This document shows positions 6,311 through 64,000 of a stretch of 64,000 bases of DNA, piece by piece (within the stretch, counting starts at the first letter, position 1; every line of letters starts with the position of its first letter). Both the position numbers and the translations under genes were made by a program. The notes under the pieces were generated by a model. It searched no databases. It was not told the DNA's origin and worked only from the letters and a program-made list of their open reading frames with translations. This DNA is from Octopus sinensis (Eukaryota): the NCBI RefSeq assembly GCF_006345805.1, contig NC_043002.1, positions 1,612,001 to 1,676,000 on the forward strand, in the 5' to 3' direction.

Positions 6311-8569
6311 CAGTGTGTATGTATGTATGTATGTATGTATGTATGTATGTATGTATGTATGTATGTATGTATGTATGTATGTATGTATGTATGTACGTAC
6401 GTATGCATATATGCATGTACGTATGTATGTGCTACCTTTTAATCTCTCTAGGTCAATAAATAAAATACCAAGCCAGACTGACAGTTTGACAGAATTGGAT
6501 GAAATGTGTTACCGTACTAATCCCCGCATTTTGATGTCAGTTGTCCCAAACAGTATTTGGCCTTGCCTTTCATTAAGATAATTTGAGTGGCATAATGAGG
6601 AAAAAACTTGCTCGTATGATGGCCTGTTTTGAAGGAAAATATCTGTGCAGGGCAGTATCTTTGAGACGAACTTTGCAAGTGTAGATCCCTGATATCACGA
6701 GCACAAGTGTGGCAATGGTCAACTGAAACCCAGGTATACCTGCATGGTCACACTCAGTATTTGAAGTGTCATTAGCATTCCTCGATATAGGAAGAGTATA
6801 TAGTGAAAGTATATAGTGCCGCATAGAATATAAAAAGGTTTTCTGTCGCTGTACCTATAAGACCGAAGTTCCAGCCTAGTTTTTTTTTTTTTCGCACACA
6901 TCGCTCTTCCATAAAGACGAATATAAACTATAAAATATAAGTGAGGTTTTAAGCAGAGAATTAACACTGCTGTATATTGTAATATTAAATCACAAGTCTT
7001 CAGCTAAATTGGCGATGGCGAAATAACAGCGTCTCTACGAAATCCGAACTTATTTAACTTGTTTCTTTCGAATACCCACTCTTCGATTATGTTAAGAAAA
7101 AATACAATGGACCGAATATTCTGTGATTTTATATCGATCGTTATTTTTCACCCGCCAGGCGATAACCCAGCTCGTCTGCAGTTTGTATACATCTCGATGA
7201 TTTCTATGTTAATATAATTATTTCCTTCGATGTTGCTTTCGGCGAGAGCTTAATAATATCATAAAAAGTAAGAAACAATTTGTTTCCTCTATCGTAACAT
7301 AATATTGCAAGTTTCTAACATTTTATTGTTACAAATATAAAAAAAGAAATGTGCGAGAAAAGTTACTTCTAAAACATTGATTCCCAACTGATCATATAAT
7401 TTGAAGAAATTTCTTTCAATATCTCTTTTTCAGTATAATCTGGCTCTGATGTAAAGATCTTACAGGAAAACAATGAACCGTATCATAAAGATGTAAAACA
7501 ATCAACAGTAAGTTTCGCTGAAACTGAAGCCAGATAACTCCCACACGCTTACAATCTACCAACAGTTGCAGATCTATGATAACTTTTTCGAAAAAAACAA
7601 AATGGGAAGTAAGTTGCATATATTTCATTGGTAACATGAACCCAGTGTGTGTTGAACTTTGGCAGTAACGATGTTAGCCAATAGTTGACCAATCATAAGA
7701 AATGTGGATCATTTACCTGCAAGTGTTTTGCTAAACATGAAAGAAGAGGCAGGTAACATATTCGGTACTCTTTTGCTGTACTTCTATTTGTTGGAGTACC
7801 CAATAATGATTATTTAAATATAAAATGCTTTTCCATAATTTCCCTGTATAGATGTAAAACATACGTTTGATCCCTTCCATAGGTAGCAGTTACAATATTG
7901 ATTTCGTTTCATTAGATAAGTTAATCTTCGTTACAGATGAGTCATTGTGCAATACAGTAGTGATAATAATTTTTGTGAAAGGGGAAAGGAATTATAGAAT
8001 GTTTTCGCTAATTGGGATTTTAGGTGTTTAATAATTAGGTGTTTAATATCTTGGGATGTCAAAGAGAAAATGGTGTATCACAAACTATGGATATTTGAAT
8101 AAGACGCTCTACAGTGTTTGTGTAAGTATTTCACCCAACCAACTACTGTGTGTTGGTCAAGCAATTTAATCCCAATCACCAGTACTATGTTGACCAATGA
8201 ACATCTCTTAACCAAGTGTAGAGTGACTCCCTCAATGCATCGATCTAACAATCTCTTCTAATTTAGTGTAGCGCGTTGGTCAGGGGATCAACTCTAATCA
8301 ACTGCAATGGGTTCGTTAATGAAACTGTTTTAATCAAGTTTAATGTGATTAGTTTAATGTGTTGGTCATGTAATGTCTCCTAATTAACTGTAATCCCAAC
8401 TACATGTAAAATGTTTGTTGAGTAATATGTGCTAATTCATTACAGTTTGTTGGACAGATAATCGAACCCAATCAAATTTAGCTTAGCTATAATGAGTTGG
8501 TCTGACAATGTCCTCGTTTCAACTGAAATTTTGCCTCGTTAAACCGATTGGTGCCAAAAATAAAACGAG

Positions 8570-9600
8570 AGCAAAATCATCTTCTAACTTGCAACCAGTA
8601 TGGCTTTCGTGGCGAGAGCGACTGTCTAACACAGCTCCTCCACCACTTTGATGACATCTTAAATGAACTAAGTGAGAACTCCGACCCGGATGTCATATAC
8701 CTTGGTTTCAGCAAGGCCTTTGACAGAGTCGACCACAATATACTGTTAAGGAAACTATCCAACGCTGGAGTCGGTGGAAAGCTACTTCAATGATTTGGGT
8801 ATTTCCTAACAAACAGAACCCAGCATGTTGTGGTTGATGGTATCCCCTCAAAACCAGCAAAAGTCATCAGCGGAGTTCCGCAGGGTACTGTGCTGGGTGC
8901 ACTTCTTTTTATTGTCTATATCAATGACATTGCAGATTCTATTGAACATAGCACCATTAAAATATTTGCAGATGACTCTAAGCTCCAGAAAGTCATTAAG
9001 GGAGCATATGATCTAACAATGCTTCAATCGGACCTATGCACAGTAACCCAGTGGGCACAAAAAATAATATGCAGTTGAACGAAGGAAAATTTGAGCTCAT
9101 CCATTTTGGAAGAGAGGGCACACTCGAACAACCATATATACTATTGTCGGGAGACCTTCTTGAACCGTCAGATAACATTAGAGACTTAGGTGTAATTGTC
9201 GACATCAACCTTAGCTGGAATGTGCACATCAACAAAAAAGTCAGTGTTGCCCGCAGAATGTGTTCATGGATCCTCAGAACTTTCCAATCTAGGGATCATG
9301 AAATCATTACCCTTCTCTTCTCCACATTCGCTAGGCCCCACCTCGAATACTGTTGCCCATTGTGGTATCCCTATAAAAAAACAAGACATAATGAAGATAG
9401 AAGCACCACAAAGATCAATCACAAAAAAAATAAATAAATGGAATGATGGGACTTGATTATTGGGCTCGACTTAAACAGCTGAAGCTCTATTCTCTGCTAG
9501 GCCGCCGTGATAGATACATTATTTGTACCATGTGGAAAATATTCCACCAATATTATCCAAATGATATCAGTATTATGTTTACAATTCACCCAGAACTAGC
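8570..9600 (+). mobile_element. Degenerate CR1/L2-group LINE RT fragment, related to the element at 59541-62597
   Basis: QYGFR..CLTQLLHH..DVIYLGFSKAFDRVDH, SGVPQGTVLG.LLFIVYIND, KIFADDSKL, RDLGVIVD, RPHLEYCC, with stops and frameshifts. It is collinear with the intact ORF2. Confidence 0.93.
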
Positions 9601-9609
9601 CCCCCCCCA

Positions 9610-10985
9610 ATGACTAGTGATTTGTACGGAGTGTTGGAGCTCCTGGAGAGCGTTGACTCGGAATATGAAAGCGAATCGCTAGAAAGTGTGGAAAATTATA
9701 CTGCAGCGGTTGGTGAAAAGCAAAAAAGATACAACATCAGGCGAGAGGCCGTGGGAAAATTTCAATCAATTCTGTGGGGAGAGAGAGAGAGAGCAAACGT
9801 GAGATTAGCTATCCCCACCCCCTAGAAACCACAGAAGTAACAAGAAAAAGAACAATAATTTATGGAACACTATCTCTTAAAATAAAGAAAATAAAGATAG
9901 CGTCTACTGAAGAAATTGAAAAAAGCCCTAAAACTATATTGTACAAGGTGGTATTCATGAAAAGAGGAAAGAAATTCGGTACCGTGGAGGTAAAATATGA
10001 CACCAGAGATGATTCCGCAATCACCCAGCAGACGAACGAGCTGCCTTTTACTTTCATACCTTGGCAAAAGAACCGCAAAAATCGCAATATAAGTTTATCC
10101 ACCTGAAATTAGATCGGCCTGGCTTTTGGCACACACTTGATCCAATACCAAGGAGAAGGTGACACTACTGGAGTCCGAGGAGAAATAAATGCAGAACTGG
10201 TGTGGTGGGAGTCTTCGGGAGACAATTCAAGACATTCCAGAAGTGGAGGAAATTCCAGAATTTATAATTCTACAGGATGAGACAAACCTTAGAGTCTCGG
10301 TCCAGGGCAGCATCTTAAGATGTTTCGAGTGCGGACTGAAATGGCACAGGAGGAAAACATGCCCCACACCATTCAGCCTGAAATACAAAGAAAAAAAAAC
10401 AGGATGAATTAAAGGTACAGCAAGAGAAGCCGAACGAGGACGCTGTAGGTGAGTAGGAAGAGAAGCAGTAAGAGGCGGAGAGGATAGTGGAGAAGGAGAA
10501 TTGCGCGTCGGAGGGAGGTTGACCGTTCACATGTACTGAGGTAAGTGAGGAGGAATGGTCAGTTGCAGAGAGGAAGAGGAAAACAAAACGTTTTCGTTCT
10601 CTTCGTCCGACAAACACAAAAAGCTTAAAAATGGATGCAGAAGAACAGATACGAACACAGACAAAATACATTACAAACGCAGACAGCAAAAAGGAAAAGA
10701 TGTCACAAAAAAGTGAATATACAACAATACAACACAAGTAACACACAACAAAAATAAGGAGACAAAAATAAAATAACTGTTTAAAATCTCTTTCTAAAAA
10801 TGTTCAATGACCTTATCTGGTGTGTAGGGTTTCGAGTTGACGTCTTTCTACCGTTTCTTTTATCATTTCCATTCTTTTCATTTCATTTTCTTTTTCCCAA
10901 CTTTTGCGGGTTTTTTCCCGTCCTTGTTTTTTTCCCCTCTATGTTAGGCCCTGTGTGGCCGATAAGGAAATTCAGTATCAGTAGT
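9610..10985 (+). mobile_element. ORF1-only (gag-like, CCHC knuckle) non-autonomous retroelement, copy A
   Basis: Broken ORF with RGKKFGTVEV...LRVSVQGSILRCFECGLKWHRRKTCP. No EN/RT follows. The 3' UTR ends in a SINE-like tail (TCCTTGTTT..CCCCTCTATGTTAGGCCCTGTGTGGCCGATAAGGAAAT) plus GTA repeats. Confidence 0.7.
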
Positions 10986-12548
10986 CTTCCTCTTTTTGAT
11001 TGCTGTTGATCGGCTATTTTTGTGTGGACCACGTGTGTTCTGCCGTCTTGCGGTGGTATTGTCGACGTCCCCGCCTTGTTTGAAGGGGGAACGTTGTAGG
11101 TTTGTCCCTTCGTAATGGAATACGAAGGTTTGAGTTCCTCCTCTTCAGACTTTACGTTGTCTGAGGAGGAGGAGCTGGTTAAGAGTCTGAAGAGAATGGC
11201 CGAAACAATGGCAGTGAAGAATTATGCAAAAGCGGTGAAAGATAAAAATGAAGGCTTGTGTCTGAAGGAGTTGAGTAGATTCAAAGAAATACTTAGAAAA
11301 GGAGGGGAACGACGTAAAAGTGTGTCGCCCAAAGAATTTTTAAAAGCGAAAAAAGAAAAAAATAGCATTATACACAGGACAATTGAAGTCATGTCGACCC
11401 CACAAGTCGAAAAGGCATTAAAACCAATCTGGCAAGGGATTCCTTACCTTGCCAGAGGAAGAAAGTTTGGAACGCTGGAGGTGCAGTTCCGGGAGTTAGC
11501 TCTTGCTAGGCTTCAGTCGGCAACTTAAAAACAGATGAAGTGATGCTACTACCTATATACCTTCGGAGACGTGCTTCCACGTTTAGGGTAGAAGATATAC
11601 TGCCAGAAATTGATATAGCCTGGCCAACAGCTGTCATACTACTGGGCACGGAAGAGAAGGTAGTGATCCTCCAGGCCACCAGAACGCCCTATAAGATCTG
11701 GTAAAGGCAGATCCAAGATATGATAGTCTAGGCGGCCCCGGAGACCTTGAGGACATGGTCAAGACAATCACTGCCGAAGAAGTGACACTCAGGATCAGAG
11801 TGGCAGGCAGGATCCTGCGATGCTACAAATGTGACCCTAAAGGCTACATTAGAGCAGACTGTCCTCCGCCACTCGTGAAGACTAAAGAGAAACCCGAGAG
11901 CTGGAAGGAAATCGCGACTTCACTGCCGATGAAAACCGGTACCAGCACCGAGGAAGAGGAGGTGAACGAGGAAAATAAAGGATAGGAAGCGGATGGTAAA
12001 AAAAGAAGAAAGAGAAGGAAAAAGCACACTTTGAAAATGATGACCCCCCATCCCACATTCACACGAATCGCAACCACACCTACCCTACCCTAACCTCCCC
12101 CTACAGACACCAACCCACTCCATGTCCCACAAAGACAAGCACAAGCACACAGGAGCCTCACCCCTGCCCTGTGAGGAAAAATATGTTATATTGTACAACG
12201 GACAAAATGAAAAACTTTATAATGAGATAGACTCGGGAGACAAAGCGATAAAAGTGAATACAACAGAAGTTGGGGGATTGCCTGGGCACATTCATTGTGC
12301 GGTGGCAGACCCAGAGTGTCTTTTGAGAGTGAAGGATTATGAGGAGAATTTTGAGTACTGGGGTCAAGAAAATTGACACCAGCATAATACCAAAACAGGT
12401 AGGCTATCTTGGACTGTTAAAGAAATTTAACATACACTTTTTTCGGAAAGATGTAAGTTAACTGTTGCAAATAATGTTTTAAACTGTTAAAAATAATATA
12501 TTCGTTATTTACATTCGATGGATATTTGTCCTCATCTTGTTTGTTGTT

Positions 12549-12594
12549 AACACAACGTTTCGGCTGATATACCCTCCAGCCTTCTTCAGGGGTC
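12549..12594 (-). ncRNA. Minimal type I hammerhead ribozyme in the PLE pLTR
   Basis: Minus strand: GACCC-CTGAAGA-A-GGCTG(gagggtatat)CAGCC-GAAACGTT-GTGTT. Core intact, palindromic minimal stem III (AACGTT), one mismatch in stem I. Confidence 0.82.
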
Positions 12595-12662
12595 TTGGGG
12601 AAATTTCGAACCTGGGTCCTCATTCCTAAGATATTTTTCGATGTTATTATTATTGTTGTTAT

Positions 12663-12739
12663 TCAGGCCATTGCTTGGAGTAGACCTCGGAATCTTGGGA
12701 TTAGTAGCCCGAGCTCTTAACCACTACGCCATATACCCG
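12663..12739 (-). promoter_or_regulatory. tRNA-like Pol III internal promoter (A box, degenerate B box) inside the PLE 3' region
   Basis: Minus strand: TGGCGTAGTGGTTAAGAGCTCGGGCTACTAATCCCAAGATTCCGAGGTCTACTCC. A second B-box-like GGTTCGAAATT lies at 12602-12612. Confidence 0.6.
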
Positions 12740-14474
12740 TGGGCAATTATGGAGTGAATTTTAGGGATTATAAATCTAATATTTTTCTATCCTTCCTTAA
12801 TACCGGTTCCCATATGTTGCTCATATCTGCACTCAGTCTGCTTAGGAGGTTGTTGTGTCCTAGCATATGTGCCGCTTCTTTTAGTTTTCATATTTTCCAG
12901 TGGTGTTCTCTGTCTATTATTTCAACTTCATCCCACAAGGGATCATACATGATCAGCTATACCCGATTTTTCAATATCTCGTGTCACAGCTTTGCGATGT
13001 TCGTCTACGCTTATTTTGAGGGGGCGGCATGTTTCGCCTTTGTAAAAACCTACCACAGCTGCATGGGATGGAGTACACACAGTCTTTGGTCATATTCTCT
13101 TCTATTGGTGGTTTTACTCGAAGGAAATATTTGCGAAGTGTTGTATTAATCTTGAATACTGTCCTGATGTCATATGGGCCGCATATCTTTTGTATCTTTT
13201 CGGAGAAGCCTTTCACAAAAGGTAGACAGACTGTGGACAGTTTATTGGCCTCATCCTCTCACTTCTTCATAATTGGAGTGGAGAGTATACTTTTGGGGTA
13301 GTTGTTCCTTAATAGATTGTTACTGAGCTTGATCATTTCTTCGTGGTGTGTATCACGATCCCTACTTATATTCTTTGCACGATGTTTTCGGCACTGAGAA
13401 ATCTCTCTTTTTACACTGTATGGATGGTGGGAATTGAAGTTGAAGTATCGTCCAGTAAATGTCGGCTTGCGGTATACGGATGTCCTGAATCCATACATGG
13501 TGCATGTTATTTGATTTCAAGATGAGGACAAATATCCGTCGAATGTAAATAATTTAAATAATGTACATAATTCCTCATCTCTTAAATATAGAACTGTTAC
13601 AAATAATGTTTTTAAAAAAAGTTGTATTAACAGGTTCAATGAAGTCGCGCGGTGGTGGGGGACGGACGGCTTCATTTCATTAATAATTTTATCTAATTCA
13701 TCATTTTTTACTGTCCCCACCATATGCTGTCTTCTCTTATGTTAGCCCCACCCCCTCGTCTGACCAATAAAAGAAAGTCAGTGGTAGTAAAGAGCCAAAA
13801 ATAAACACAGAGCAGATACGAACGCAGACAAAAATATTACTAACACAAACAGCAAAACAAAGCCCCCAAAATAATACTGAATATTCTACACAAGCAACAC
13901 ACAGCAAGGACAAAAAAAAATACAAAAATAAAATAACTGTTCAAAAACATGTTCAATGATATTATCTGGAGTGCGGGGTTCGAGTTAACGTCGTTCCAGT
14001 TTTTCATTTTTGATTCCCATTCTTTTCATTCGTTTTTATTTTTCCCTACTTCTGTGTTTTGTCTGTCCTTGTTTGTCCCCCTGTGTTAGACCTCGTGTGG
14101 CCAAATAAAGAAATACAGTAGTAGTAGTAGTAGTAATAGTAGTAGTAGTAGTAGTAGTAGTAGTCGTACGAGTTCTCAGTTGAAGTCATCGTCAGTTACG
14201 TAATAGATACGAGTTCGAATTACTGTCAAGGTAGACGTGTCAGCGATAGCACAATAGACAATAATAAGATTCGGAATACCACCACACCATAATAGTGGAG
14301 ACAGGAATCTTACAGTGCTGATGACAACATACAAATGGACGAGGATCCACCTGATAACCTGTATAATCGAATATGAAATCTGCATTAATACAGAGGAGAG
14401 TAACGGCGGCAAAAGTGAAAACTGCACAAGTGAGAAGAATGGGTGAGAGCAAACCCGGATTATTTGATTTCAGA

Positions 14475-14679
14475 TTTTGGTACAAGGCTAGCAATTTGGG
14501 TGGAGGCTGGTGATTCGATTAAACCGACCCCACTGTTCAACTGGTGCTACATTAACGACCCCACAAGGATCACAGGCCATGCCGACATCGACGGAATTTG
14601 AACTCAGAACACAAAGACAGACGAAATGCCGCCAAGCATTTTGGTCGGCGTGCTAACGATTGTGCCAGCGCGCCGCCTT
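14475..14679 (-). mobile_element. tRNA-derived SINE (family 1, older copy)
   Basis: Reverse complement of the GGCGGCGAGCTGGCAG...GAGTTCAAATTCCGCCGAGGTCGAC head that recurs throughout the window. Confidence 0.85.
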
Positions 14680-15839
14680 CTATGTTGTAGTATATTGGCA
14701 TCAGTTATAAGGACAAGAATTTTATCCTTCATGAACTAACATTGTTACGAATTATTTGAAACTGAAATAAAAGACAGAGCTAAAATGATCGTTGTGTATT
14801 GCCTGATGAATGTAGATGCAGGCATAACGATGTGGTCAAGACGTGTCATGCTCGTTCTCCCAAGTAACGCATGCCCACTGGATGCTCTACTACAGCTTAA
14901 GCGATTTAAGTATGATTTCTAGCAAATAAACATATCACATAGCTGCTCCCTTGCTGACACTCCACAGTTCCTCGCTTTGTGGTAACTCATGAATACTTAT
15001 TGTTTATCTTGCTTTTGCTGTTTTGTTTTATATTTTAGATTCAGGTCTGTCATATTTATAGGAAAGCATTACCTTCATTTATTCAGCCAAATTCTCAGGG
15101 ACTTCGACAAGAATTGAATGCGGGACACGGCACATACAATGTAAAATGTATTCTATTGTTAGCCATTCACTTCATTAAAGTTTGTTATAAAATGAAAAAA
15201 ACTGAATGAAATGTCGCGCGACTCTGAAGAAAAAGAACTAATAAAATTCGCCATTTTGTACTTTCTTTATCAACTTGCCAGTTTTCGCCACTTAAAAAAG
15301 AAAAAAGAAAAAAAAAACAGGAAATCTAGTTTTTGTCAGTTTTGTTAAGACCAACTCTCTTTATGATTTCCAGTTATTTGAAATATATTCTTTCAGCAAA
15401 CAATTCAAATTTTTCTCAGCCGGTAACAGAGGAGAAGCACAAAACAAATATGAATATAGTCTTATATTTATGTATTGAGAATCCTCACAAAAATTTGTAT
15501 CTTATTCAGAAAAGTAGAAAATTTCATAAAAATGAAATTTTTGATTTTTGGATGATTTTAACCTTCGTATTATATTAAAATATTGATTGACGTTAACCGA
15601 CGTGGGACAAAGTTCGTCACAAAAGAAATTCTGCAAACTTAGTAAAAGACAACTTAATTGGATAAAGAAGATCGTAGCATGTATGTAGCATAAGATAAAC
15701 GATAGGTGGAGATGAAGTGATCCTACATTGTATTAGCCTCTGGTGGGTAATAAAAGAAATAGTTCCTACACTGTATTTGAAATTCCCCCCATTTAAAAGG
15801 GGGAAAACATCGTTTAGTTTAATTATAATGCATGTTAGC

Positions 15840-16070
15840 AGGCGGCGAGCTGGCAGAAACGTTGGCACGCCGGGCGAAATGCGTAGCCGTATTTCGTCTG
15901 CCGTTGCGCTCTAAGTTCAAATTCCGCCGAGGTCGACTTTGCCTTTCATCCTTTCGGGGTCGATAAATAAAGTTCCAGTTCCGCACTGGGGTCGATATAA
16001 TCGACTTAATCCCTTTGTCTGCCCTTGTTTGTCTCCTCTATGTTTAGCCCCTTGTGGGCAATAAAGAAAT
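15840..16070 (+). mobile_element. tRNA-derived SINE (family 1)
   Basis: A box GGCGAGCTGG, B box GTTCAAATTCC, body CCTTTCATCCTTTCGGGGTCGAT, tail TTTAGCCCCTTGTGGGCAATAAAGAAAT. Near-identical to 49953-50185. Confidence 0.92.
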
Positions 16071-16479
16071 ATATATTGCATGTTAGTTCAAAGATGTCAG
16101 ACACACTGGAATGTCGAGATAGGATTGAAACAATTTAGATCACGCAAGCTAGATTAAAACATAAACTAGATTCCGAGGCCGACTTTGCCTTTCATTCTTT
16201 AGTGGTTGATAAAGCACCACTCGAAAACTAGAGTTGATGTAATCGACCACCCCCCTCCCTCAAAATTTCAGGTCACCCTTAAAATTGCTGGCCTAGAGAC
16301 AACATTTGGAACCACACTTTTTAACATTGTTGTTGTTATGATGATGATAATGATATTTGGATTTTGCTATGTGTTTGAACGAGCTGAGTCCAAGTCTTAC
16401 CCCGACACACTGAGCGAGAGTACGTTATAAAGTTCAAAAGGGTATTATGGCTAGGTTAGTTGATAATTGACATGTTTAG

Positions 16480-17280
16480 GAGGAGGAAATTAGTTCGGTG
16501 AGAGGGTCACATGTTTTAATTGTGAAACCTTGGATTCATGAGACGTACTGTTTGGGAAAATGTGCTTTTGATAATATTTGAGAACAGATTTTGGAACTAT
16601 ATAGAAAGTATTTATTGTGGGACATGAGTAGTCCCCATGAGTACCAGTTTTTGAATTTCTTCCATTTTGGGACTCTTTAGGATTTGCGATACGCAATTTT
16701 TCTATTATTACTAACGCGGTTACAATCACAGATATTGTTCTAGACTTGAGCTTCCGTAATTTACCAATTTCTATTTCAAGATCTTTACATTTGCTCATCT
16801 TGTTTAAGCTCTCACCAGTCTCTTTGATGGGGTGGGTCTAGGTCTTTATAAAAATTACCCAGGAGATATTCTGTGCAGCTCTCTTCTGCGCACTGAGATC
16901 CTCTGAAGATACAAGAAAGCAACACGTGAAGAAATATATAATTAATGGTTTCAGGTGGTCATTTGCTCACCCAACATTTTGGGGCTTCTGCCGTTCTTTA
17001 AGATGCTGTCTTGAAAGCTTCTTACAGGTAGGCATTGATCCTGGTTTTGTATGATAAACCCTGCTGTCTCTAAATTTAGGCCAGAGAGCACAAACCACAT
17101 TCTTAGCACTTTTTGGGTATTTACCACGAAGTGGTTTTTTCCTGCCATTTGCCGATAATATTAATTAAATCCGTGTTTCTAGCAATGGTTTTTATGTGTT
17201 CTGCTTTTTATGCGTTTGTTCTATGTTAATCTAATTCCGGAAATTGTTGTACTTGGAATTCTTTTGAATATGTTTCTGCC
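16480..17280 (-). mobile_element. R4/Dong-like (RLE) non-LTR retrotransposon fragments
   Basis: SKCKDLEIEIGKL..ISVIVTAL (RLE C-terminus) and SGLNLETAGFII..QDQCLP..ILKN (region before the zinc knuckle). Confidence 0.7.
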
Positions 17281-26029: not shown

Positions 26030-26732
26030 AAGGCGCATGGCCAAGTGGACTGTACCACTCACGACCGCCGGATGGTGTGTTCGATTCCGAGACCGTGCGG
26101 CGAGTTGTGTTCTTGAGCAAAACACTTCGTTTCATGTTGCTTTTGGGGATGGGAAAGTGTCTAAGTTCAAATCCTGAACAGGTCAACTTTGCCATTGTCC
26201 CTTTCGAGATAGATAAAAGATAGTCCCAGTCAAGTATTGAGTCCTTAATATCATCTAAATCGTCCATTGGCATTAATCCGTTTGTCTGTCCTTGTGTGTC
26301 CTCTCTGTGTTTAGCTCCTTGTGGGCAGTAAAGAAATAGTTATTTTGACTGTCTTTACGTTCTGAGTTCAAATTCTGCCGAGGTCGACGTTGTCTTTCAT
26401 CCTTTCGGGGTCGATTTAATCGAATGAGCCCCACGCCCGAAACTGCTGGCCTTGAACCAAGAATTGAAACGAATTGGATAATCCAATTTATTAAAACTTT
26501 AGTCTCTCTAACATCGTTGCTCATCTTTCGGGTTTCCTCAGAGCAATATTAGAGGTTTCAATCGAATTTCATTGATTAAAAGATAGATACATCTCTCGTT
26601 TCTGTTAGTATAACTTCTGATATAAAGGCGACGAGCAAGCAGAATTGTTAATAGTCCGGGAAATATGCTTGTCTTTATGTTCTGAGTTCAAATTCCGCCG
26701 AGGTCCACTTTGCCTTTCGGAGTAGATAATAT

Positions 26733-26960
26733 TTCTTTAGTTACCCACAAGGGGCTAAACACAGAGAGGACAAACAAGGACAGACAAACGGATTAAGTCG
26801 ATTACATCGACCCCACTGCGTAACTGGTACTTTATTTATCGACCCCGAAAGGATGAAAGGCAAAGTCGACCCCGGCGGAATTTGAACTCAGAACGTAACA
26901 GCAGACGAAAAACGGCCACGCATTTCGCCCGGCGTGCTAACGTTTCTGCCAGCTCGCCGC
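26733..26960 (-). mobile_element. Young family-1 SINE nested antisense in an older family-1 SINE (26625-27058), with a 15-bp TSD
   Basis: TSD CGGAGTAGATAATAT at 26718-26732 and 26961-26975. Full head-to-tail SINE on the minus strand. Confidence 0.9.
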
Positions 26961-27171
26961 CGGAGTAGATAATATAAGAACGAGTTGAGTTCTAAATTGA
27001 CGTAATCAGCTGACGCCCTTCTCCCCGAAATTGCTGGCCTTGTGCCAAAATCTGAAGCGAATATATAATTTGTGATTGCAAGATATTTATTTTTTGTAGC
27101 AGCAGAGGAAGAAGCGATTAAAAAACTTGGAGTAACAGCAGCATCATTGGTACGATTAGTGGTTGCAGTAA

Positions 27172-33665: not shown

Positions 33666-34070
33666 AAGGCGGCGAGCTGCCCGAAACGTTAGCACGCCGG
33701 ACGAAATGCGTAACCGTGTTTCGTCTGCCGTTGCATTGTGAGTTCAAACTCCGCCGAGGTCGACTTTGCTTTTCATCCTTTCGGGGTCGATAATTTAGTA
33801 CCAGTTACGCACTGAGGTCGATGTAATCGAATTAATCCGTTTGTCTGTCCTTGTTTGTCTTCTGCTGTGTTTAGCCCCTTGTGGGTAGTAAAGAAATAGG
33901 TATTTCATCTGTCTTTACGTTCTGAGTTCAAACTCCGCTGAGGTCAGCTTTGCCTTTCATCCTTTCGGGGTCGATAAATTAAGTATTAGTTGCGTACTGG
34001 GCTCGATCTAATCGACTGGTCCCCTCAACCCTAAAGTTTTCGGGCTTTGTGCTTAGAGTAGAAAAGAATA
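33666..34070 (+). mobile_element. Family-1 SINE, full copy plus tandem partial copy (dimer or nested)
   Basis: The SINE body GAGTTCAAACTCCGC..CCTTTCGGGGTCGATAA occurs twice. Confidence 0.88.
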
Positions 34071-38042: not shown

Positions 38043-38400
38043 ACTGTTCTACTCTAGGCACAAGGCTCCCATTTTTTTTGCGGGGGGTGCAGTCGATTAG
38101 AACGAGCCCAGTACGCAACTAGTACTTAATTTATCGACTCCGAAAGGATGAACGGCAAAGTCGACCTCGGCAGAATTTGAACTCAGAACATAACGGCAGA
38201 CGAAATACCTATTTCTATTTCTTTACTACCCACAAGGAGCTAAACACAAAGGACAAACAAGGACAGACAAACGGATTAAGTCGATTACATCGATCCCAGT
38301 GCATAACTGGTACTTAATTTATCGACCCCGAAAGGATGAAAGGCAAAGTCGACTTCGACGGAATTTGAACTCAGAACGTAACGGCAGACGAAATACCGCT
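38043..38400 (-). mobile_element. Family-1 SINE dimer (5'-truncated)
   Basis: Two reverse-complement SINE bodies (CCGAAAGGATGAA.GGCAAAGTCGAC..GAATTTGAACTCAGAAC). Confidence 0.85.
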
Positions 38401-49952: not shown

Positions 49953-50185
49953 AAGGCGGCGAGCTGGCAGAAACGTTAGCACGCCGGGCGAAATGCGTAG
50001 CCGTATTTCGTCTGTCATTACGTTCTGAGTTCAAATTCCGCCGAGGTCGACTTTGCCTTTCATCCTTTCGGGGTCGATAAATTAAGTACCAGTTACGCAC
50101 TGGGGTCGATGTAATCGATTTATTCCGTTTGTCTGTCCTTGTTTGTTCCCTCTGTGTTTAGCCCCTTGTGGGTGGTAAAGAAATA
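49953..50185 (+). mobile_element. Young full-length family-1 SINE with an 18-bp flanking duplication
   Basis: GGTGATTTATTTTACTAT at 49924-49941 and 50186-50203. A and B boxes intact. Confidence 0.92.
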
Positions 50186-59540: not shown

Positions 59541-62500
59541 TTAAGTCAAGTTTTGTTCAAGTAGTGAGTTCTTGTTGGGTGAGTTGTATCCCATTATGAG
59601 TGGCTTATCTGGTATTCTTTGAAGGAATCTATCCAGACTCTGTTTAAAGTTGATGGGATTCTTTTCCTCTTTGATCTCTTTCGGGACAATGTTAAATAGG
59701 GCAGGGCCTGTTGAGGAAAAGAAATTATGTTGCAGTGTACATGTATGTTGTGATCTTGAATTGGGCAGGGGACGTATAGCCCGTGGTCCAAGTCTCGGAT
59801 GAACCTTGAAGCTAATGTTTAGGTCGTTTGGGCAAAGTTGGCGGTATATTTTCCACATCGTACAAATGATGTACCGCTCACGGCGACGCTGGAGGGAGTA
59901 AAGTTTCAAGGCTTTAAGGCGATCCCAATAGTCGAGAGCAGCCATGCCTTCAATTTGTTTAGTGAGTGCCCTCTGGGGTGACTCAATTCTGGAGATGTTT
60001 TGTCTTGTGTGAGGAGACCACAGTGAGCAGCAGTATTCAAGGTGTGGCCGTACAAAGGAGGAAAAAAGTGGTATGATGACACCTTGTTCTCTGGACCGGA
60101 AAGTTCTTAAGATCCAGGAACTCATCCTACGAGCTATGTCGACCTTCTTGTTGATGTGTGCACTCCAACTGAGATCGTCATCAACAATTACACCCAGGTC
60201 TCTGATATTGTTAGAGGCTGTGAGCGGTTCCCCTGAAGGAAGAGAGTATGGCTGTTTTAGTGAGGAGTTTCTTCCAAAATGCATCAGCTCAAATTTTCCC
60301 TCGTTCAGTTGCATTTTGTTTCTGTCTGCCCATTGACTCACAGCATATAGATCAGACTGGAGTTGAGTTCGGTCTGCTTCTTCATTGACGATTTGCTGGA
60401 GCTTGGTGTCATCAGCAAATATTTTCACTTTGCAGTAATGTACGACACTGGAAAGGTCGTTTATGTAGATTATGAAGAGTAGCGGTCCCAAGACAGTCCC
60501 CTGGGGGACACCGCTGGTGACTTTTGCTGGGCTTGAGTTGACTCCATCAACTACAACATGTTGTGTTCTATTCGCCAGGAAATACTTGAACCAGTGTTGA
60601 ACTTTTCCACGGATTCCAACATTTGCCAATTTTGAGAGTAGGATATTATGGTCTACCCTGTCGAACGCTTTACTGAAGTCAAGATATATGACATCAGAGT
60701 TCGAACCTGATCCTAAGGCTTTGAGTACATCTTCAATGTGGTGTAAGAGCTGTGTTAGACAGCCCCTGCCACATCGAAAGCCATGCTGATTTGCATTTAG
60801 GAGTTTCTGGGTCTCCAGGAGGTCAGCTATCATTGATCTTAACACTCTTTCAAACACTTTAATGATGTGGGAGGTGAGTGGGATTGGGCGATAGTTGACC
60901 GCGAGGGATCTGTTTTCCTGTTTGAAAACCTGGATGACCGACTGGGATAGAAACTGTTTCGGTATATAACCTGCGTCTAACGAATTTCTCCAGAGGTTGG
61001 TCAGAGGGACTGCAAGTTGGTGTCTACATTCCTTCAGGAGACTAGCGGGGAATCTATCAGGGCCTACAGCAGAGTAGTATTTGACCTCATTTATTGCTGC
61101 TACGATGTCGGTGGGAGTGAAGGTTATGTCTGAGATTTTATGTTGGGAGTCAACTTCGTTCGCTTCTCTTACGTCAATATCAGTGGGAACACTAAAGACA
61201 GAGCAGTATTGTTTCTGCAGTATTTCTGCCATTTCTTTAGCATCGTGTTGGGGAATGCCGTTAGCATCAATCAATGGCCCAATGGGTGAGACAGTGGTTC
61301 TATGCTTATTTGCATAGGAATAGAACACTTTTGGGTTCTGTTTGATGTTTTTGATTACCCACTGTTCCTCCACAGCTCTTTGGTTTTCAATGGAGGTTTT
61401 CATGTCGTTCTGCAGATGAGGTTTTTCCAGCTCTAGCCTTTTCATTGTTGTTGAATGTGGATGTTGTTTGTGGGAATATTTTGATTGGTTGATTTTTTTG
61501 TTAAGTCTTTTGATGCGCCTGATGAGTGTTTTCTTCTTTTTAGGGAGCCGATTTCTGTTTGTGTTAGATTTCGTGGGAGCGTACTTAGAGCATGTATATG
61601 TGACAATGTTTTCAAAGTGCCGCCATGCCGTCTCAATATGGGTGGAATTGAGAGTAAAAGACCAGTCGATGAAAGACAGATCCTTTCTGATTGCTCCCCA
61701 GTCCGCTTTGTGGAGGTTTATGTTATCAAATGAGTGCCATGGAGTGGGATTGGCTGGTTTGGTTTTTATATGTCGGGAATTGAAATTGCAGAGTACCTTG
61801 TCGTGATCTGAGAGGAGAGTTTTTTCAACTGAAATACTGTGAACGAAGCTAGAGTGATTGGTCAATACCAGATCCAAGATCGTTTTATTCTGTCTCGTTG
61901 GTTCGAGCACAAGCTGAGTCAGGAAGTATTCATCCATTAGATTAAAGAGCAGTTCCACTGCTGCTCTATCTGATGTAGAGCACTTGCCTAACTTTAGAGT
62001 ATTTGTGGGCCAGTTCACATGAGGGAGGTTAAAATCACCCATCACTAGTATGTTTCCGGAGTGGTACTTCCGAAGGAAGGACTTGACTTTGCTAAGGCAC
62101 TCTTCAAAGCACTTTAAAGGTGCTTGGGGAGGCCTGTAAAGACCAACAATGTTCTTGGCCTTGCTGAATAGTGATACAGATTCACAATAGCCATTGGAAA
62201 ATATGTCCTTGGCATCAAGTGAGAAGGAGTCATGGATAAAGATGGCTGTCCCTCCCTTATTTCGGTTTGTACGATCCGCACGAACAATGGTGAAATCTTT
62301 TATTTTCACCTCGGCGTCTATATGGGTGTTGTTCAGGTGAGTCTCGGTAAGGATAAAGAAAGGGAAGCAATGTGTCGTTTCGGCAAGCCAACTCTCTATA
62401 TATGGGATCTTCCATTTTTGGGCAATAATTGATGGGTTGATGCCACGTACATTTAATAGGAATGTCGAGGTAAGTGAAGTTTGATGTTTGCATTGTTCTA

Positions 62501-62597
62501 AGTTGTTCAGTGGTAACAATGTGGGTAGTTCTTGTATGGAGCTGTGTGTGTATGATTTTCTTGTTGGTAGTGGGTGTGTGGTCCTTGTGATTTGCAT
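59541..62597 (-). CDS. LINE ORF2: apurinic-like endonuclease plus reverse transcriptase (1018 aa, uninterrupted)
   Basis: APE motifs LNVRGI, LTETHL, GGTAIFI, YRPP, GDFNLP, LDLVLTN, SDH. RT motifs NYRPI, QHGFR, YLDFSKAFDRVDH, GVPQGTVLGPLLF, FADD, RDLGV. Confidence 0.95.
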   Translation of the reverse strand: MQITRTTHPLPTRKSYTHSSIQELPTLLPLNNLEQCKHQTSLTSTFLLNVRGINPSIIAQKWKIPYIESWLAETTHCFPFFILTETHLNNTHIDAEVKIKDFTIVRADRTNRNKGGTAIFIHDSFSLDAKDIFSNGYCESVSLFSKAKNIVGLYRPPQAPLKCFEECLSKVKSFLRKYHSGNILVMGDFNLPHVNWPTNTLKLGKCSTSDRAAVELLFNLMDEYFLTQLVLEPTRQNKTILDLVLTNHSSFVHSISVEKTLLSDHDKVLCNFNSRHIKTKPANPTPWHSFDNINLHKADWGAIRKDLSFIDWSFTLNSTHIETAWRHFENIVTYTCSKYAPTKSNTNRNRLPKKKKTLIRRIKRLNKKINQSKYSHKQHPHSTTMKRLELEKPHLQNDMKTSIENQRAVEEQWVIKNIKQNPKVFYSYANKHRTTVSPIGPLIDANGIPQHDAKEMAEILQKQYCSVFSVPTDIDVREANEVDSQHKISDITFTPTDIVAAINEVKYYSAVGPDRFPASLLKECRHQLAVPLTNLWRNSLDAGYIPKQFLSQSVIQVFKQENRSLAVNYRPIPLTSHIIKVFERVLRSMIADLLETQKLLNANQHGFRCGRGCLTQLLHHIEDVLKALGSGSNSDVIYLDFSKAFDRVDHNILLSKLANVGIRGKVQHWFKYFLANRTQHVVVDGVNSSPAKVTSGVPQGTVLGPLLFIIYINDLSSVVHYCKVKIFADDTKLQQIVNEEADRTQLQSDLYAVSQWADRNKMQLNEGKFELMHFGRNSSLKQPYSLPSGEPLTASNNIRDLGVIVDDDLSWSAHINKKVDIARRMSSWILRTFRSREQGVIIPLFSSFVRPHLEYCCSLWSPHTRQNISRIESPQRALTKQIEGMAALDYWDRLKALKLYSLQRRRERYIICTMWKIYRQLCPNDLNISFKVHPRLGPRAIRPLPNSRSQHTCTLQHNFFSSTGPALFNIVPKEIKEEKNPINFKQSLDRFLQRIPDKPLIMGYNSPNKNSLLEQNLT

Positions 62598-63880
62598 AGG
62601 TGGTTGCTGATAGCTCGTTGGATCTCCTGGCTTAGGTCGGCCTTCATATTTTCTAGGTAAGTCAGTAAAAAAGAGTTACCACTTTGGTTTGCCACTTGGT
62701 CGGAGGATACATATTTCATGTTTGTGTTATTTGGTGTTATGGTTTTTTCATGGTTCTGTCTTCGTTGTTTGATTGTAGGAGGGAAAACGTGGTTGTATGT
62801 TGCTTTTATTGTTGTCGAAGATCTCCTCTGTTGCTGTTTATATCTATTTTGTGATCGTTTTGTGCCCTTCAGATGGTGGTGGTTGCATTCTGGGTTCAGG
62901 CACATCCTTAGTGACACAGAAGTTTGGCACAGTTTAGGATGAAAGAAGGTGCATCTATTGCCTTTTGTACATCCATATTTGGGATCAGGACCATGGATTC
63001 TGTATTTAGGACAGTATTTGGGGTGGAGGTGAGGGCAGTTTTTTCCCGTTATACCGTATGGACAGGTGCCCTTAACAAGTCTACGACATAGGGTGGGATG
63101 GAAAAAAGCACAGCGTCCCTTGTTGTTGTTGCCGCTGGGGCCAAATTTACAGTTGCCTTGAGCATAGTAACGGCAGGGTGTTTGATATGGGTGTATGGGT
63201 GATTTTTCTATAGAAGAGTGTTGTTGTTGCTGTAGCAGCAGTGAAACTTGACTTGCAACAGCAGGGCTAGCAGGTGGAATCGGGTCAGGTACTGGTGACG
63301 TAGTAGCAGAGACAGGCTGTTGTGGTATTGAGTCCTGTGGAATGGGTGAAACTTGACTTTCAACAGCAGGGCTAGCAGGTGGAATCGGGTCAGGTACTGG
63401 TGATGTAGTAGCAGAAACAGGCTGTTGTGATAGTGAGTCCTGTGGAATGGGTGAAACTTGACTTTCAACAGCAGGGCTAGCAGGTGGAATCGGGTCAGGT
63501 ACTGGTGATGTAGTAGCAGAAACAGGCTGTTGTGATAGTGAGTCCTGTGGAATGGGTGGAATGAGGTCAGATGTTTGTTGCTGGCTATCGAGTCGTTGAA
63601 GTGATCCCTGACCTGTTGGAGTTGGGTCATTTGGTGCACTACATTCATTGACAAGGATGGCTTTTAGTGTTGCCATGTGCGTGTGAATAATAGGAAATAT
63701 TCTGACAATCTCTTTTGTTTTATTTTCTATCTGTTTTACAGATCTGGGAAAGGATTGTTTTGCTAATTTTTCAGCTATTTTACTGTAAACATTAGCTTCA
63801 TTGTGGTGAGTGTACCAAGCGTTTATCATTGCAGTGATTTCATTTTCAACCCAGTGGCGTTTTTGAATATTATCGGCCAT
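62507..63880 (-). CDS. LINE ORF1: Myb/SANT-like N-terminus, Pro/Ser/Gln repeats, four CCCH zinc fingers, C-terminal helix
   Basis: W..NEITAMI.AW...VYSKIAEKL....RSVKQIENK (trihelix-like). Fingers C-x7-C-x12-C-x3-H, C-x7-C-x8-C-x3-H, C-x13-C-x5-C-x3-H and C-x8-C-x4-C-x3-H. First ATG at 63880. Confidence 0.88.
   Translation of the reverse strand: MADNIQKRHWVENEITAMINAWYTHHNEANVYSKIAEKLAKQSFPRSVKQIENKTKEIVRIFPIIHTHMATLKAILVNECSAPNDPTPTGQGSLQRLDSQQQTSDLIPPIPQDSLSQQPVSATTSPVPDPIPPASPAVESQVSPIPQDSLSQQPVSATTSPVPDPIPPASPAVESQVSPIPQDSIPQQPVSATTSPVPDPIPPASPAVASQVSLLLQQQQHSSIEKSPIHPYQTPCRYYAQGNCKFGPSGNNNKGRCAFFHPTLCRRLVKGTCPYGITGKNCPHLHPKYCPKYRIHGPDPKYGCTKGNRCTFFHPKLCQTSVSLRMCLNPECNHHHLKGTKRSQNRYKQQQRRSSTTIKATYNHVFPPTIKQRRQNHEKTITPNNTNMKYVSSDQVANQSGNSFLLTYLENMKADLSQEIQRAISNHLCKSQGPHTHYQQENHTHTAPYKNYPHCYH
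63241..63558. repeat. In-frame 105-bp x3 tandem repeat within ORF1
   Basis: GTGAAACTTGACTT.. recurs at 63241, 63346 and 63451, encoding IPQDSLSQQPVSATTSPVPDPIPPASPAVESQVSP. Confidence 0.95.
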
Positions 63881-64000
63881 ATTCAGTGGGACAGTATTAT
63901 ACACTGTACGTTAGTTATTGATGAAAAGTTTGTGTCGATATATTCGGAAATGCGTGGCTATATCTGAGTGTGTGTGGGAGAGTTCAGTGTATATAGTACA

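Follow-up and report, generated by a model that had tools for sequence, protein, structure and literature searches.

The array and its neighbours

The window analysed here is a 64,000-nt stretch of the Octopus sinensis genome (contig NC_043002.1, positions 1,612,001 to 1,676,000). On its forward strand lies a head-to-tail array of three elements, not two as originally predicted: a member of a family designated A, a member of a second family, B, and a 5′-truncated copy of A. To the left of the array, and outside it, is a reverse transcriptase (RT) fragment without its 3′ part (8527..9600, + strand), which we take to be CR1-like; its two Pfam RVT_1 matches (E=3e-5 and 1e-4) are both below the cut-off, and it is 73% identical in nucleotides to CR1-like copies at two other loci (L131 and L107).

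Element 1 (9609..10971, +), recognized by homology to dispersed copies, belongs to the ORF1-only family A and is colinear over 9609-10974 with L061, L069 and L062 (76-81%). It lacks the 5′ UTR of approximately 200 nt present in other A copies and adjoins the CR1-like fragment. Its ORF1 (9610..10404, +), interrupted by stops and frameshifts, comprises an RRM-like region and a CCHC knuckle, and its 3′ tail (10912..10971, +) consists of a pyrimidine tract, a 4-bp hairpin and an AATAAAG-like end. A first spacer (10973..10986, +) resembles a target-site duplication (TSD), being a copy of the target in the LTR family designated LTR3 (11/17 match). Element 2 (10994..13777, +; 1.7 kb without its insert) is of subtype B′ of the ORF1-only family B; it falls in the B clade of the tree and is colinear on both sides of the insert with L238, L241, L252 and L108 (77-82%). 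At its 5′ end is a 7-nt remnant that matches the duplication of another target. The ORF1 (11115..12376, +) is broken and contains an RRM-like region, a CCHC knuckle, a low-complexity linker and a C-terminal segment of approximately 110 residues. The tail of element 2 itself (13712..13777, +) has a damaged hairpin.

The insert in element 2 (about 12484..13593, − strand, with boundaries set by alignment of copies) is flanked by a duplication of approximately 22 nt and is presumably a Penelope-type fragment, a label that we base on its motifs. Pfam gave no match for it; positions 13262-13516 resemble PF26215 HTH_animal clusters (score 0.97), and the fragment is 83-87% identical in nucleotides to dispersed copies. 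The claim that neither endonuclease nor RT precedes the 3′ end is thus correct in that element 2 has no ORF2 of its own, but not for the antisense insert, which is RT/endonuclease-like.

A second TSD-like copy of the LTR3 target (13779..13794, +) separates element 2 from element 3 (13795..14114, +), which retains only the 3′ UTR and tail of an A copy and is 75-80% identical to dispersed A 3′ UTRs. The array ends in a solo LTR of the LTR3 family, the right part of which (14116..14358, +; 40 dispersed matches) begins at the target motif. The elements are set apart by short copies of their landing site; there is no left TSD, because the left half of the LTR and the 5′ UTR of element 1 are absent. 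The GTA repeats, previously regarded as part of the family tail, are an expansion of the LTR3 target motif (14117-14168, +). This locus is the sole place in the genome where the tail is combined with (GTA)n, and both a (GTA)n tail and a (GTA)n microsatellite target were rejected on this ground. Further right is a SINE copy (15840..16072, +), the last 58 nt of which match the tail; other SINE copies lie at 26729-26961 (−), 33667-33898 and 49954-50185.

That two frameshifted, homologous ORF1s follow one another head to tail is borne out by tblastx (E=2.7e-25, with blocks 33-46% identical), identity over the 199 columns of the ORF1 core being 27% in amino acids and 43% in nucleotides. The match of approximately 340 bp reported between their 3′ ends is also real (72.5%, E=4e-48), but its second piece (13795-14114) is element 3 and not the end of element 2, which can be aligned with other B copies over its whole length and stops at 13777. 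The end of element 2 itself is far less like that of element 1 (score 55 versus 300). Head-to-tail arrays are also formed by HeT-A. The order of the units and the presence of A twice could be attributed to local tandem duplication or unequal crossing-over, to which we give almost no credence: the units come from two families with ORF1s only 27% alike, the two A copies (72.5%) are no closer to each other than to dispersed copies, a copy of the target lies at each joint, and mixed arrays (P-A, C-A and A-A) occur at other loci.

Dispersed ORF1-only families and their protein

Families A and B have spread as units, as seen from dispersed copies, 5′ truncation and TSDs (15-20 bp in L060, L126, L251, L195 and L206). 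ORF2 follows ORF1 in none of 27 family A loci with a 5′ end and, among 40 loci of 10 kb anchored on ORF1, 36 have no ORF2 within 3 kb, one is a distant autonomous copy and three contain ORF2 pieces. It might be supposed that such copies are decayed LINEs that lost ORF2 in separate deletions, or that their tails are separate SINE fragments. In three of the 40 loci (L103, L118 and L127), ORF2 pieces are indeed joined to ORF1 or to the tail, and one ORF1 is chimeric; the latter, ‘AUT_L326’, had been regarded as an autonomous element within the A/C clade and was discounted. However, the distance from the end of the ORF1 core to the tail is constant in family A (540-698 nt), no SINE body intervenes between the family-specific 3′ UTRs and the tail, and the ORF1-only clades include no autonomous member in the sampled tree, in which five ‘AUTtandem’ labels are provisional. 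There is also selection on shared branches: dN/dS of B ORF1 is 0.29 on these versus 0.57 at the tips (49 copies, p=3e-14), which shows that B ORF1 has been under purifying selection, and the values for A are 0.46 and 0.61 (19 copies, p=0.07; not significant for A alone). Decay is accordingly a very improbable account, and the two outcomes that were to have counted against the original prediction, ORF2 at variable breakpoints and independent SINE fragments, did not materialize. The ORF1-only lineages are deep clades (SH-aLRT 100 for A). The similarity of their ORF1 to any autonomous ORF1 in the sample does not exceed 37-43%, and it does not derive from the ORF1 of the autonomous family P described below.

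ORF1 appears to have the expected architecture, a probably RRM-like part with one CCHC knuckle. Pfam gave no useful match for the ORF1 pieces of the window; zf-CCHC is above the Pfam cut-off in ORF1. The best Foldseek matches of a predicted structure (pLDDT 72) are tandem RRMs, although weak (E=3.5e-3 to 6e-3); VIA relates the model to ferredoxin-like folds including RRMs (Z up to 7.7), and Atlas provides a lead to ZCCHC3-type RNA-binding domains (0.89). The C-terminal segment of approximately 110 residues is conserved among B copies and has no Pfam match. Homologues of ORF1 lie in Tx1-like elements of the same genome, and five of ten that were looked up are named from Octopus and Argonauta. 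L1 ORF1p is absent from the 27 PDB sequence matches to ORF1, and A and B are not HAL1 proper, in the sense of derivatives of mammalian L1.

Landing sites, tails and the probable autonomous partner

The main feature of these elements is site-specific landing in LTR promoters. Insertions of A, B and their relatives lie 30-33 nt behind a TATA box in LTRs of five families that are unrelated to one another; the junction is fixed in three families and is seen in single flanked copies in two more. The target duplications measure 15-18 bp. The target is identified as an LTR by TG...CA ends and a PBS-like flank in other copies; a DUF7083 gag-like frame follows LTR3 at one locus (L190, E=1e-11), and LTR1 pairs lie 0.5-1.3 kb apart. 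A tRNA gene was dropped as a candidate target, since ARAGORN detected none among 50 target loci. At least 11 of 17 positions match one of three LTR sites after 27 of 41 A 3′ ends, compared with 0.7% of random positions; eight ends (L085-L090, L092 and L093) were kept among the 41 as misses. These eight A-like ends look like one short piece within another repeat. When LTR copies were fetched by LTR similarity, 13 of 72 carried a tail at the target site, within about 3 nt; for LTR2, two of eight ‘tail’ calls (L294 and L310) were false and were removed, and L315, with a cut tail, was left out.

In empty LTR copies, the modal start of the TATA box is at −33, −31/−30 and −32, and at −30 and −32 in the two further families. 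Across independent targets, a TATA box at −34..−28 is found in nine of 16 (at −29 to −33) versus two of 176 control windows, figures for which the interval and the TATA pattern were chosen post hoc and the representative copy of each target was picked by hand. The seven targets without it are the SINE head, T4, L126, L325, L327, L333 and one LTR copy (TATA at −19). Autonomous sister families likewise insert 29-31 nt behind a TATA box, at other promoters of unrelated sequence, and one of them adjoins base 1 of a U1 gene. Sister families are also found at (TC)n, (TATC)n and the SINE head, and thus plain sequence targeting exists in the clade; of the B-clade copies whose end can be read, the majority lie in the SINE head and not in LTRs.

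A rival explanation, which we consider rather improbable, retains the same elements and partner but has the site chosen by sequence alone: the endonuclease would cut at a short GT|(C/A)AG-type motif, target-derived tags on the ends of the RNA would pair with the site, and start sites would be enriched only through transcription of the copies there, which become masters. Evidence for this includes the CAGT with which all three LTR targets of A open, the SINE-head and microsatellite targets that have no TATA box, and the match of the 5′ remnant of element 2 to the duplication of another target; cotranscribed target RNA is, moreover, known to strengthen targeting (PMC4494074). Nevertheless, other CAGT motifs in the target LTRs, some of them nearer, are unused (−21, −17, +30 and +46; −6 and +26; +31), and the autonomous targets behind a TATA box are unrelated in sequence. 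Close B′ relatives occur in five different target sequences, and A and B′ copies from different LTR families (three in the case of A) are intermixed in the tree, from which it follows that the landing site is not inherited with the lineage. Inheritance of the site via RNA tags, once considered as the main rule, is weakened by these trees and is kept only within this rival.

The autonomous LINE that had been postulated was found, and is designated P. A complete copy with ORF1, endonuclease (EN) and RT lies inside an LTR1-type LTR with a duplication of approximately 17 bp; RVT_1 is above the cut-off, and residues 16-1134 of ORF2 are matched. All four independent close copies (the duplicate L343/344, L345, L346 and L347) end at the LTR1 site. 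P copies are 75-84% alike, comparable to A copies; those examined are broken, and P was found only at LTR1, not at the LTR3 of the window. For B′, no partner with a tail as close as that of the P-A pair was found. The autonomous relatives have PF03372, PF00078 and PF13966 above the cut-off, possess an APE endonuclease, RT and a C-terminal zinc finger, and insert target-specifically with a TSD. We take them to be Tx1-like on the basis of this architecture, their targeting and sequence motifs. In O. vulgaris, the annotation includes L1-Tx1 families (PMC13282606).

The likeness of the tail to the SINE, as first noticed, is confirmed over 58 nt (E from 1e-8 to 1e-11 in the window; none of 1000 shuffles reaches the score) and stops at 58-60 nt. 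It was proposed on this basis that one LINE moves A, B and the SINE through one tail. Amongst the tails compared, those of A, the SINE and P are mutually closest (48-52/58; 50/58 for P versus A, 48-50/58 for the SINE versus P), but the tail of a fourth family (L171) is equally close (47-50/58), and that of element 2 is only 36-40/58 like any of these four. The hairpin tail recurs, in different versions, in 15 or more autonomous Tx1-like families, every one of which has a target of its own. A Watson-Crick stem of at least 3 bp is present in 16 of 17 family tails versus 3.8 expected (0/5000 shuffles), and the stems differ; a hairpin score permitting G-U pairs gives a weaker result (68.5 versus a mean of 55.6, with a shuffle maximum of 76). 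Rfam found nothing credible in 8000-17000 or in the SINE. Other SINE copies, furthermore, provide the SINE with a fixed insertion site (25 of 69 3′ ends), which is not the LTR site of A and P, and among the 72 loci the 13 LTR-site tails include none that is SINE-like by eye. A single shared partner is therefore not established, both because the hairpin tail belongs to many Tx1-like families and because the SINE uses another site; the three-part system as originally drawn is unlikely, and the difference in site suggests that the partner of the SINE is probably a sister family.

Proposed explanation and relation to known elements

Our preferred reading, which we consider probable, is that three non-autonomous, ORF1-only LINE derivatives are stacked at the predicted start site of an LTR, moved by the enzyme of a partner Tx1-like LINE. 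The partner is known from the same site in a related LTR, and it is this shared spot that makes borrowing of its enzyme likely; the LTR promoter is likely to be borrowed too, to judge from sequence. A copy at the start site would be transcribed from the LTR promoter, its RNA starting in the duplicated first 17 nt or so. The ORF1 protein would coat its own RNA in cis, and ORF1 would consequently stay under selection. The ORF2 protein of the partner would bind the pyrimidine tract and hairpin at the 3′ end and nick the target at a point determined mainly by its position in the TATA promoter, a CAGT/AGT-like core being weakly preferred. Target-primed reverse transcription would then duplicate the target at both ends, so that later copies of any family using the site stack head to tail.

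A bolder version, which we put forward tentatively as a possibility, is that an animal LINE clade finds Pol II start sites by position, via the TATA-bound initiation complex, with ORF1 kept in the long-lived ORF1-only lineages as a tether; these lineages may then be hyperparasites on LTR promoters, exchanging tails so as to be mobilized by the partner enzyme that is active at the time. Both ORF1-only LINEs and Tx1 elements inserting into other repeats are already known; the literature searched contains no report of ORF1-only Tx1-like families, nor of a LINE landing rule by distance to TATA across unrelated promoters. Should such a rule be correct, a single system would allow tests both of the reason for which ORF1 is retained in ORF1-only elements and of the way in which an APE-type LINE selects its site in the absence of a long recognition sequence; sister families that are young, intact and of this geometry (the L323 and L340 types) provide material for such tests. 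It would also point to the probable source of the enzyme for a large fraction of octopus repeats, and would predict that LTR and host promoters are silenced or captured.

Non-autonomous, ORF1-only LINEs have been described as HAL1 (from L1), HeT-A (Jockey) and Ag-Sponge (CR1) (PMC5786205, PMC5753468). Like these, A and B encode one protein, ORF1, probably depend on an autonomous LINE and share its 3′ end; unlike them, they are site-specific, have neither a poly(A) nor a repeat tail, and have a Tx1-like parent, outside the three clades named in the relevant part of PMC5786205. HAL1 arose several times from L1, whereas A and B are deep ORF1-only clades. The target-specific Tx1 clade includes Tx1L, Keno (U2), Kibi ((TC)n), Koshi and Tx1-Mar with SINEU, and LTR retrotransposons are already known as targets, of Tx1-8_Crp and Tx1-4_AMi (PMC4494074). 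As in that clade, the elements have an APE endonuclease, RT and zinc finger, use fixed targets within repeats and form tandem copies about a TSD; a non-autonomous passenger is attributed to them from the target that it shares, and transcription from flanking DNA is proposed. Unlike the passenger described there, however, the passenger here encodes ORF1, and a single family inserts at the same promoter position in several LTR families unrelated to one another; the account of these targets in PMC4494074, the supplements of which may give positions, states neither where within the LTR elements insertion falls nor any rule based on a TATA box or start site.

A fixed distance between insertion and promoter complex recalls Ty3 and TRE5-A of Dictyostelium; the latter is of L1 type and makes contact with TBP, Brf1 and Bdp1 through its ORF1 protein. 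Both target Pol III genes, TRE5-A approximately 50 bp upstream and in antisense (PMC5911963). In contrast, the landmark here, known from sequence alone, is the TATA box of a Pol II-type promoter, and insertion is in sense at the predicted start. R2 is autonomous, uses one rDNA target sequence and has a different type of endonuclease from that found here. The likely borrowing of transcription from the target is nonetheless a likeness to R2, as the latter is treated in PMC4494074.

The array in the window and its families

The broken ORF1s of element 1 (family A; 9610-10404) and element 2 (family B; 11115-12376) are homologous (tblastx, E=2.7e-25), with only 27% amino acid identity in the core, in agreement with the original observation of two head-to-tail, diverged frames. 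Element 2 is interrupted by a 1.1-kb antisense insert, of Penelope type as judged from motifs, and is colinear with other family copies on both sides of it, with its 3' end at 13777. The 340-bp 3' match is real (72.5%), although its second piece (13795-14114) is not the end of element 2 but the 3' UTR of a third element, a family-A copy. The GTA repeats do not belong to a shared tail; they stand behind the hairpin tail once in the genome, here. The array lies in LTR3, one of three LTR families used as landing sites by A (right part, 14116-14358), and both joints between elements contain short copies of the landing site. Seven nucleotides at the 5' end of element 2 (10987-10993) match the duplication of another target (loci L242 and L245); in this single case, they may be a tag inherited from the source copy.

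Searches of the 2.7-Gb genome gave 241 candidates for the A 3' UTR, of which 40 were scored, 26 candidates for the A 5' end, with 27 matches, and 5227 candidates for the element 2 ORF1, of which 150 were scored; all are minimum counts. Family A copies are colinear (a 200-nt 5' UTR, ORF1 and tail; 1.4-1.6 kb) and often arrayed. No ORF2 followed any of 27 A starts within their loci, and none occurred within 3 kb in 36 of 40 ORF1-anchored ten-kb loci (the 20 top hits outside the window, and 20 picked for long open frames); these are thus ORF1-only elements, as predicted, and not decayed LINEs. One of the 40 (L129) is a full autonomous element of a different clade, and in three, ORF2 pieces are joined either behind the tail or behind a truncated ORF1. 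LINEs that encode ORF1 only have been described in the L1, Jockey and CR1 clades (PMC5786205, PMC5753468).

In a tree of 54 ORF1 rows, selected from 126 merged copies and 12 new ones, ORF1-only elements fall into two deeply separated groups, A with a third family, C (SH-aLRT 98), and B with others (94). One ‘autonomous’ row among them was discounted as a chimera: at L326:3880-4950, an ORF1 joining two families lies directly 5' of an ORF2 start. Shared branches of B show purifying selection on ORF1 (dN/dS 0.29 versus 0.57 at tips, p=3e-14) and A shows the same tendency (0.46 versus 0.61, p=0.07); tip values below 1 are expected because the simple counting used ignores transition bias. Of the RRM and CCHC expected in ORF1, one CCHC knuckle is present, and the predicted structure (pLDDT 72) resembles tandem RRMs weakly. 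Named homologues come from Octopus species and Argonauta (five of ten looked up). The C-terminal segment of B ORF1 (~110 residues; 12044-12373), 32-55% conserved among B copies and without a Pfam match, is a candidate targeting part.

A clade-wide hairpin tail

Elements with the full autonomous set (ORF1, APE endonuclease, RT and zf-RVT) are common, some of them young. In at least 15 families, the 3' end is a variant of one tail that lacks poly(A) and abuts the family's own target ((TC)n, (TATC)n, a SINE head, the first base of a U1 gene and others), with duplications of 15-18 bp. Of 17 families, 16 have a 3-5-bp stem just 5' of AATAAAG (against 3.8 expected; 0/5000 shuffles), and because it is kept with different letters across so many families, the tail is taken as a clade-wide signal. 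The U1 case is at L175:2228-2391, where the end of an autonomous family abuts the snRNA gene exactly. Tx1 families are known to target transposons, U2, microsatellites and LTR retrotransposons (PMC4494074).

The resemblance noted between the element and SINE tails holds over 58 nt (0/1000 shuffles). The three-part system of autonomous LINE, ORF1-only family and SINE stands in that the LINE exists and the SINE shares the tail; it is not supported as stated, in that this tail is clade-wide and the SINE has its own fixed site. Indeed, 25 of 69 SINE 3' ends are followed by a second piece from the SINE's own position 55-56 (33667-34017 and 38091-38400 in the window, and in ten-kb loci), which is a fixed self-target. 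The accessible portions of PMC4758252 and PMC4824008 name no partner for this SINE.

The window also holds a nearly intact two-ORF LINE (59544-63910, minus strand), a relative of the 8527-9600 RT fragment. It has a 1044-residue endonuclease/RT-like frame and a 467-residue frame with CCCH-like motifs and a tandem repeat of 105 bp. The available text on O. vulgaris repeats (PMC13282606) describes 13 recently active L1-Tx1 families; ‘ORF1’, ‘non-autonomous’, ‘nested’ and ‘target’ are absent from it by term search.

A landing site in LTR promoters

Three dispersed repeats account for the DNA 3' of A tails. All start with TG, end with CA and have a PBS-like stretch behind some copies; a gag-like DUF7083 frame follows one of them and another is paired, 0.5-1.3 kb apart. 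They are therefore LTRs (LTR1-LTR3). Short paired LTR1 elements of 0.5-1.3 kb (L212, L217, L219/L220, L227, L229) are TRIM-like: their ends are PBS-like and purine-rich, and no coding DNA was seen in them. One of the three sites follows 27 of 41 A 3' ends, against 0.7% at random; as the site references came from A flanks, independent support comes from empty copies and from the constancy of the position. When 72 LTR copies were collected by their LTR similarity, 13 proved to carry a tail at the site (2/19, 5/24 and 6/29), and other CAGT motifs in them are unused. Separately, a ~250-bp A 3' end occupies one site of another repeat at eight loci (L085-L090, L092, L093), probably a single insertion amplified as a passenger.

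TCAGT is a textbook initiator, and the TATA box lies at about -30. The landing site is 33, 31 and 32 nt behind the TATA box start in the three LTRs, and 30 and 32 nt in two further LTR families used by B relatives; most B-clade copies use a SINE head instead. The spacing recurs where autonomous sisters sit at promoters other than LTRs (L323, L334, L340, L324). A TATA box at the set distance, a range fixed post hoc, is found at 9 of 16 targets versus 2 of 176 control windows, and seven targets do not fit. The main rival account of this pattern, targeting by sequence or an RNA tag together with selection for transcribed masters, is rather unlikely; we favour recognition of the promoter position itself. 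No paper on ORF1-only Tx1 elements or TATA-relative LINE insertion was found in the open-access main texts searched.

At L323:3320-3430, an autonomous copy lies 30 nt behind the TATA box of a promoter with what we take to be a CCAAT box and a motif resembling a heat-shock element. A young autonomous family (L340, L341, L176-L183) lies 29-31 nt behind the TATA box of a multicopy promoter, behind which come a short stretch resembling an exon and a motif like a splice donor.

The partner family and a proposed mode of movement

An ORF2 end directly 5' of an A copy (L272) led to family P, with ORF1 and ORF2, the autonomous LINE that had been postulated unseen. Four close, independent copies of P have their ends at the LTR1 site, with none seen at LTR3. 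One of them is a full 5.1-kb element that lies within an LTR of LTR1 type and has a duplication of ~17 bp. The P tail is identical to the A tail at 50 of 58 positions, and likewise to the SINE tail; that of the L171 family is about as close. The ORF1s of P and A are far apart and A is therefore not a deletion product of P; more likely, A took on a P-compatible tail. The pairing of SINEU with Tx1-Mar was likewise argued from a shared site and tail (PMC4494074).

With structure, site and partner observed, it is quite probable that these stacked ORF1-only LINEs are transcribed from LTRs and moved by a partner enzyme that nicks at a promoter position; transcription, mobilization in trans and positional recognition are what we infer. 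The transcript of an ORF1-only element would be driven from the LTR, its ORF1p would act in cis, partner ORF2p would bind the 3' tail, and promoter position would set the nick. TRE5-A offers a precedent for ORF1p-TBP contact, at Pol III genes (PMC5911963). Target-primed reverse transcription (TPRT) with the ~17-bp duplication would renew the site and so build arrays; Tx1 tandem copies around a TSD are described in PMC4494074. Young ORF1-only copies are stacked 5' of other families' autonomous copies at shared sites (L115, L142, L333, L342), and autonomous elements, Tx1-like by architecture, targeting and motifs, are very often in tandem, with 3.6-6.4-kb spacing (C3:72501693-72518843, C9:76607599-76623566 and C25:11943354-11955794, on other contigs).
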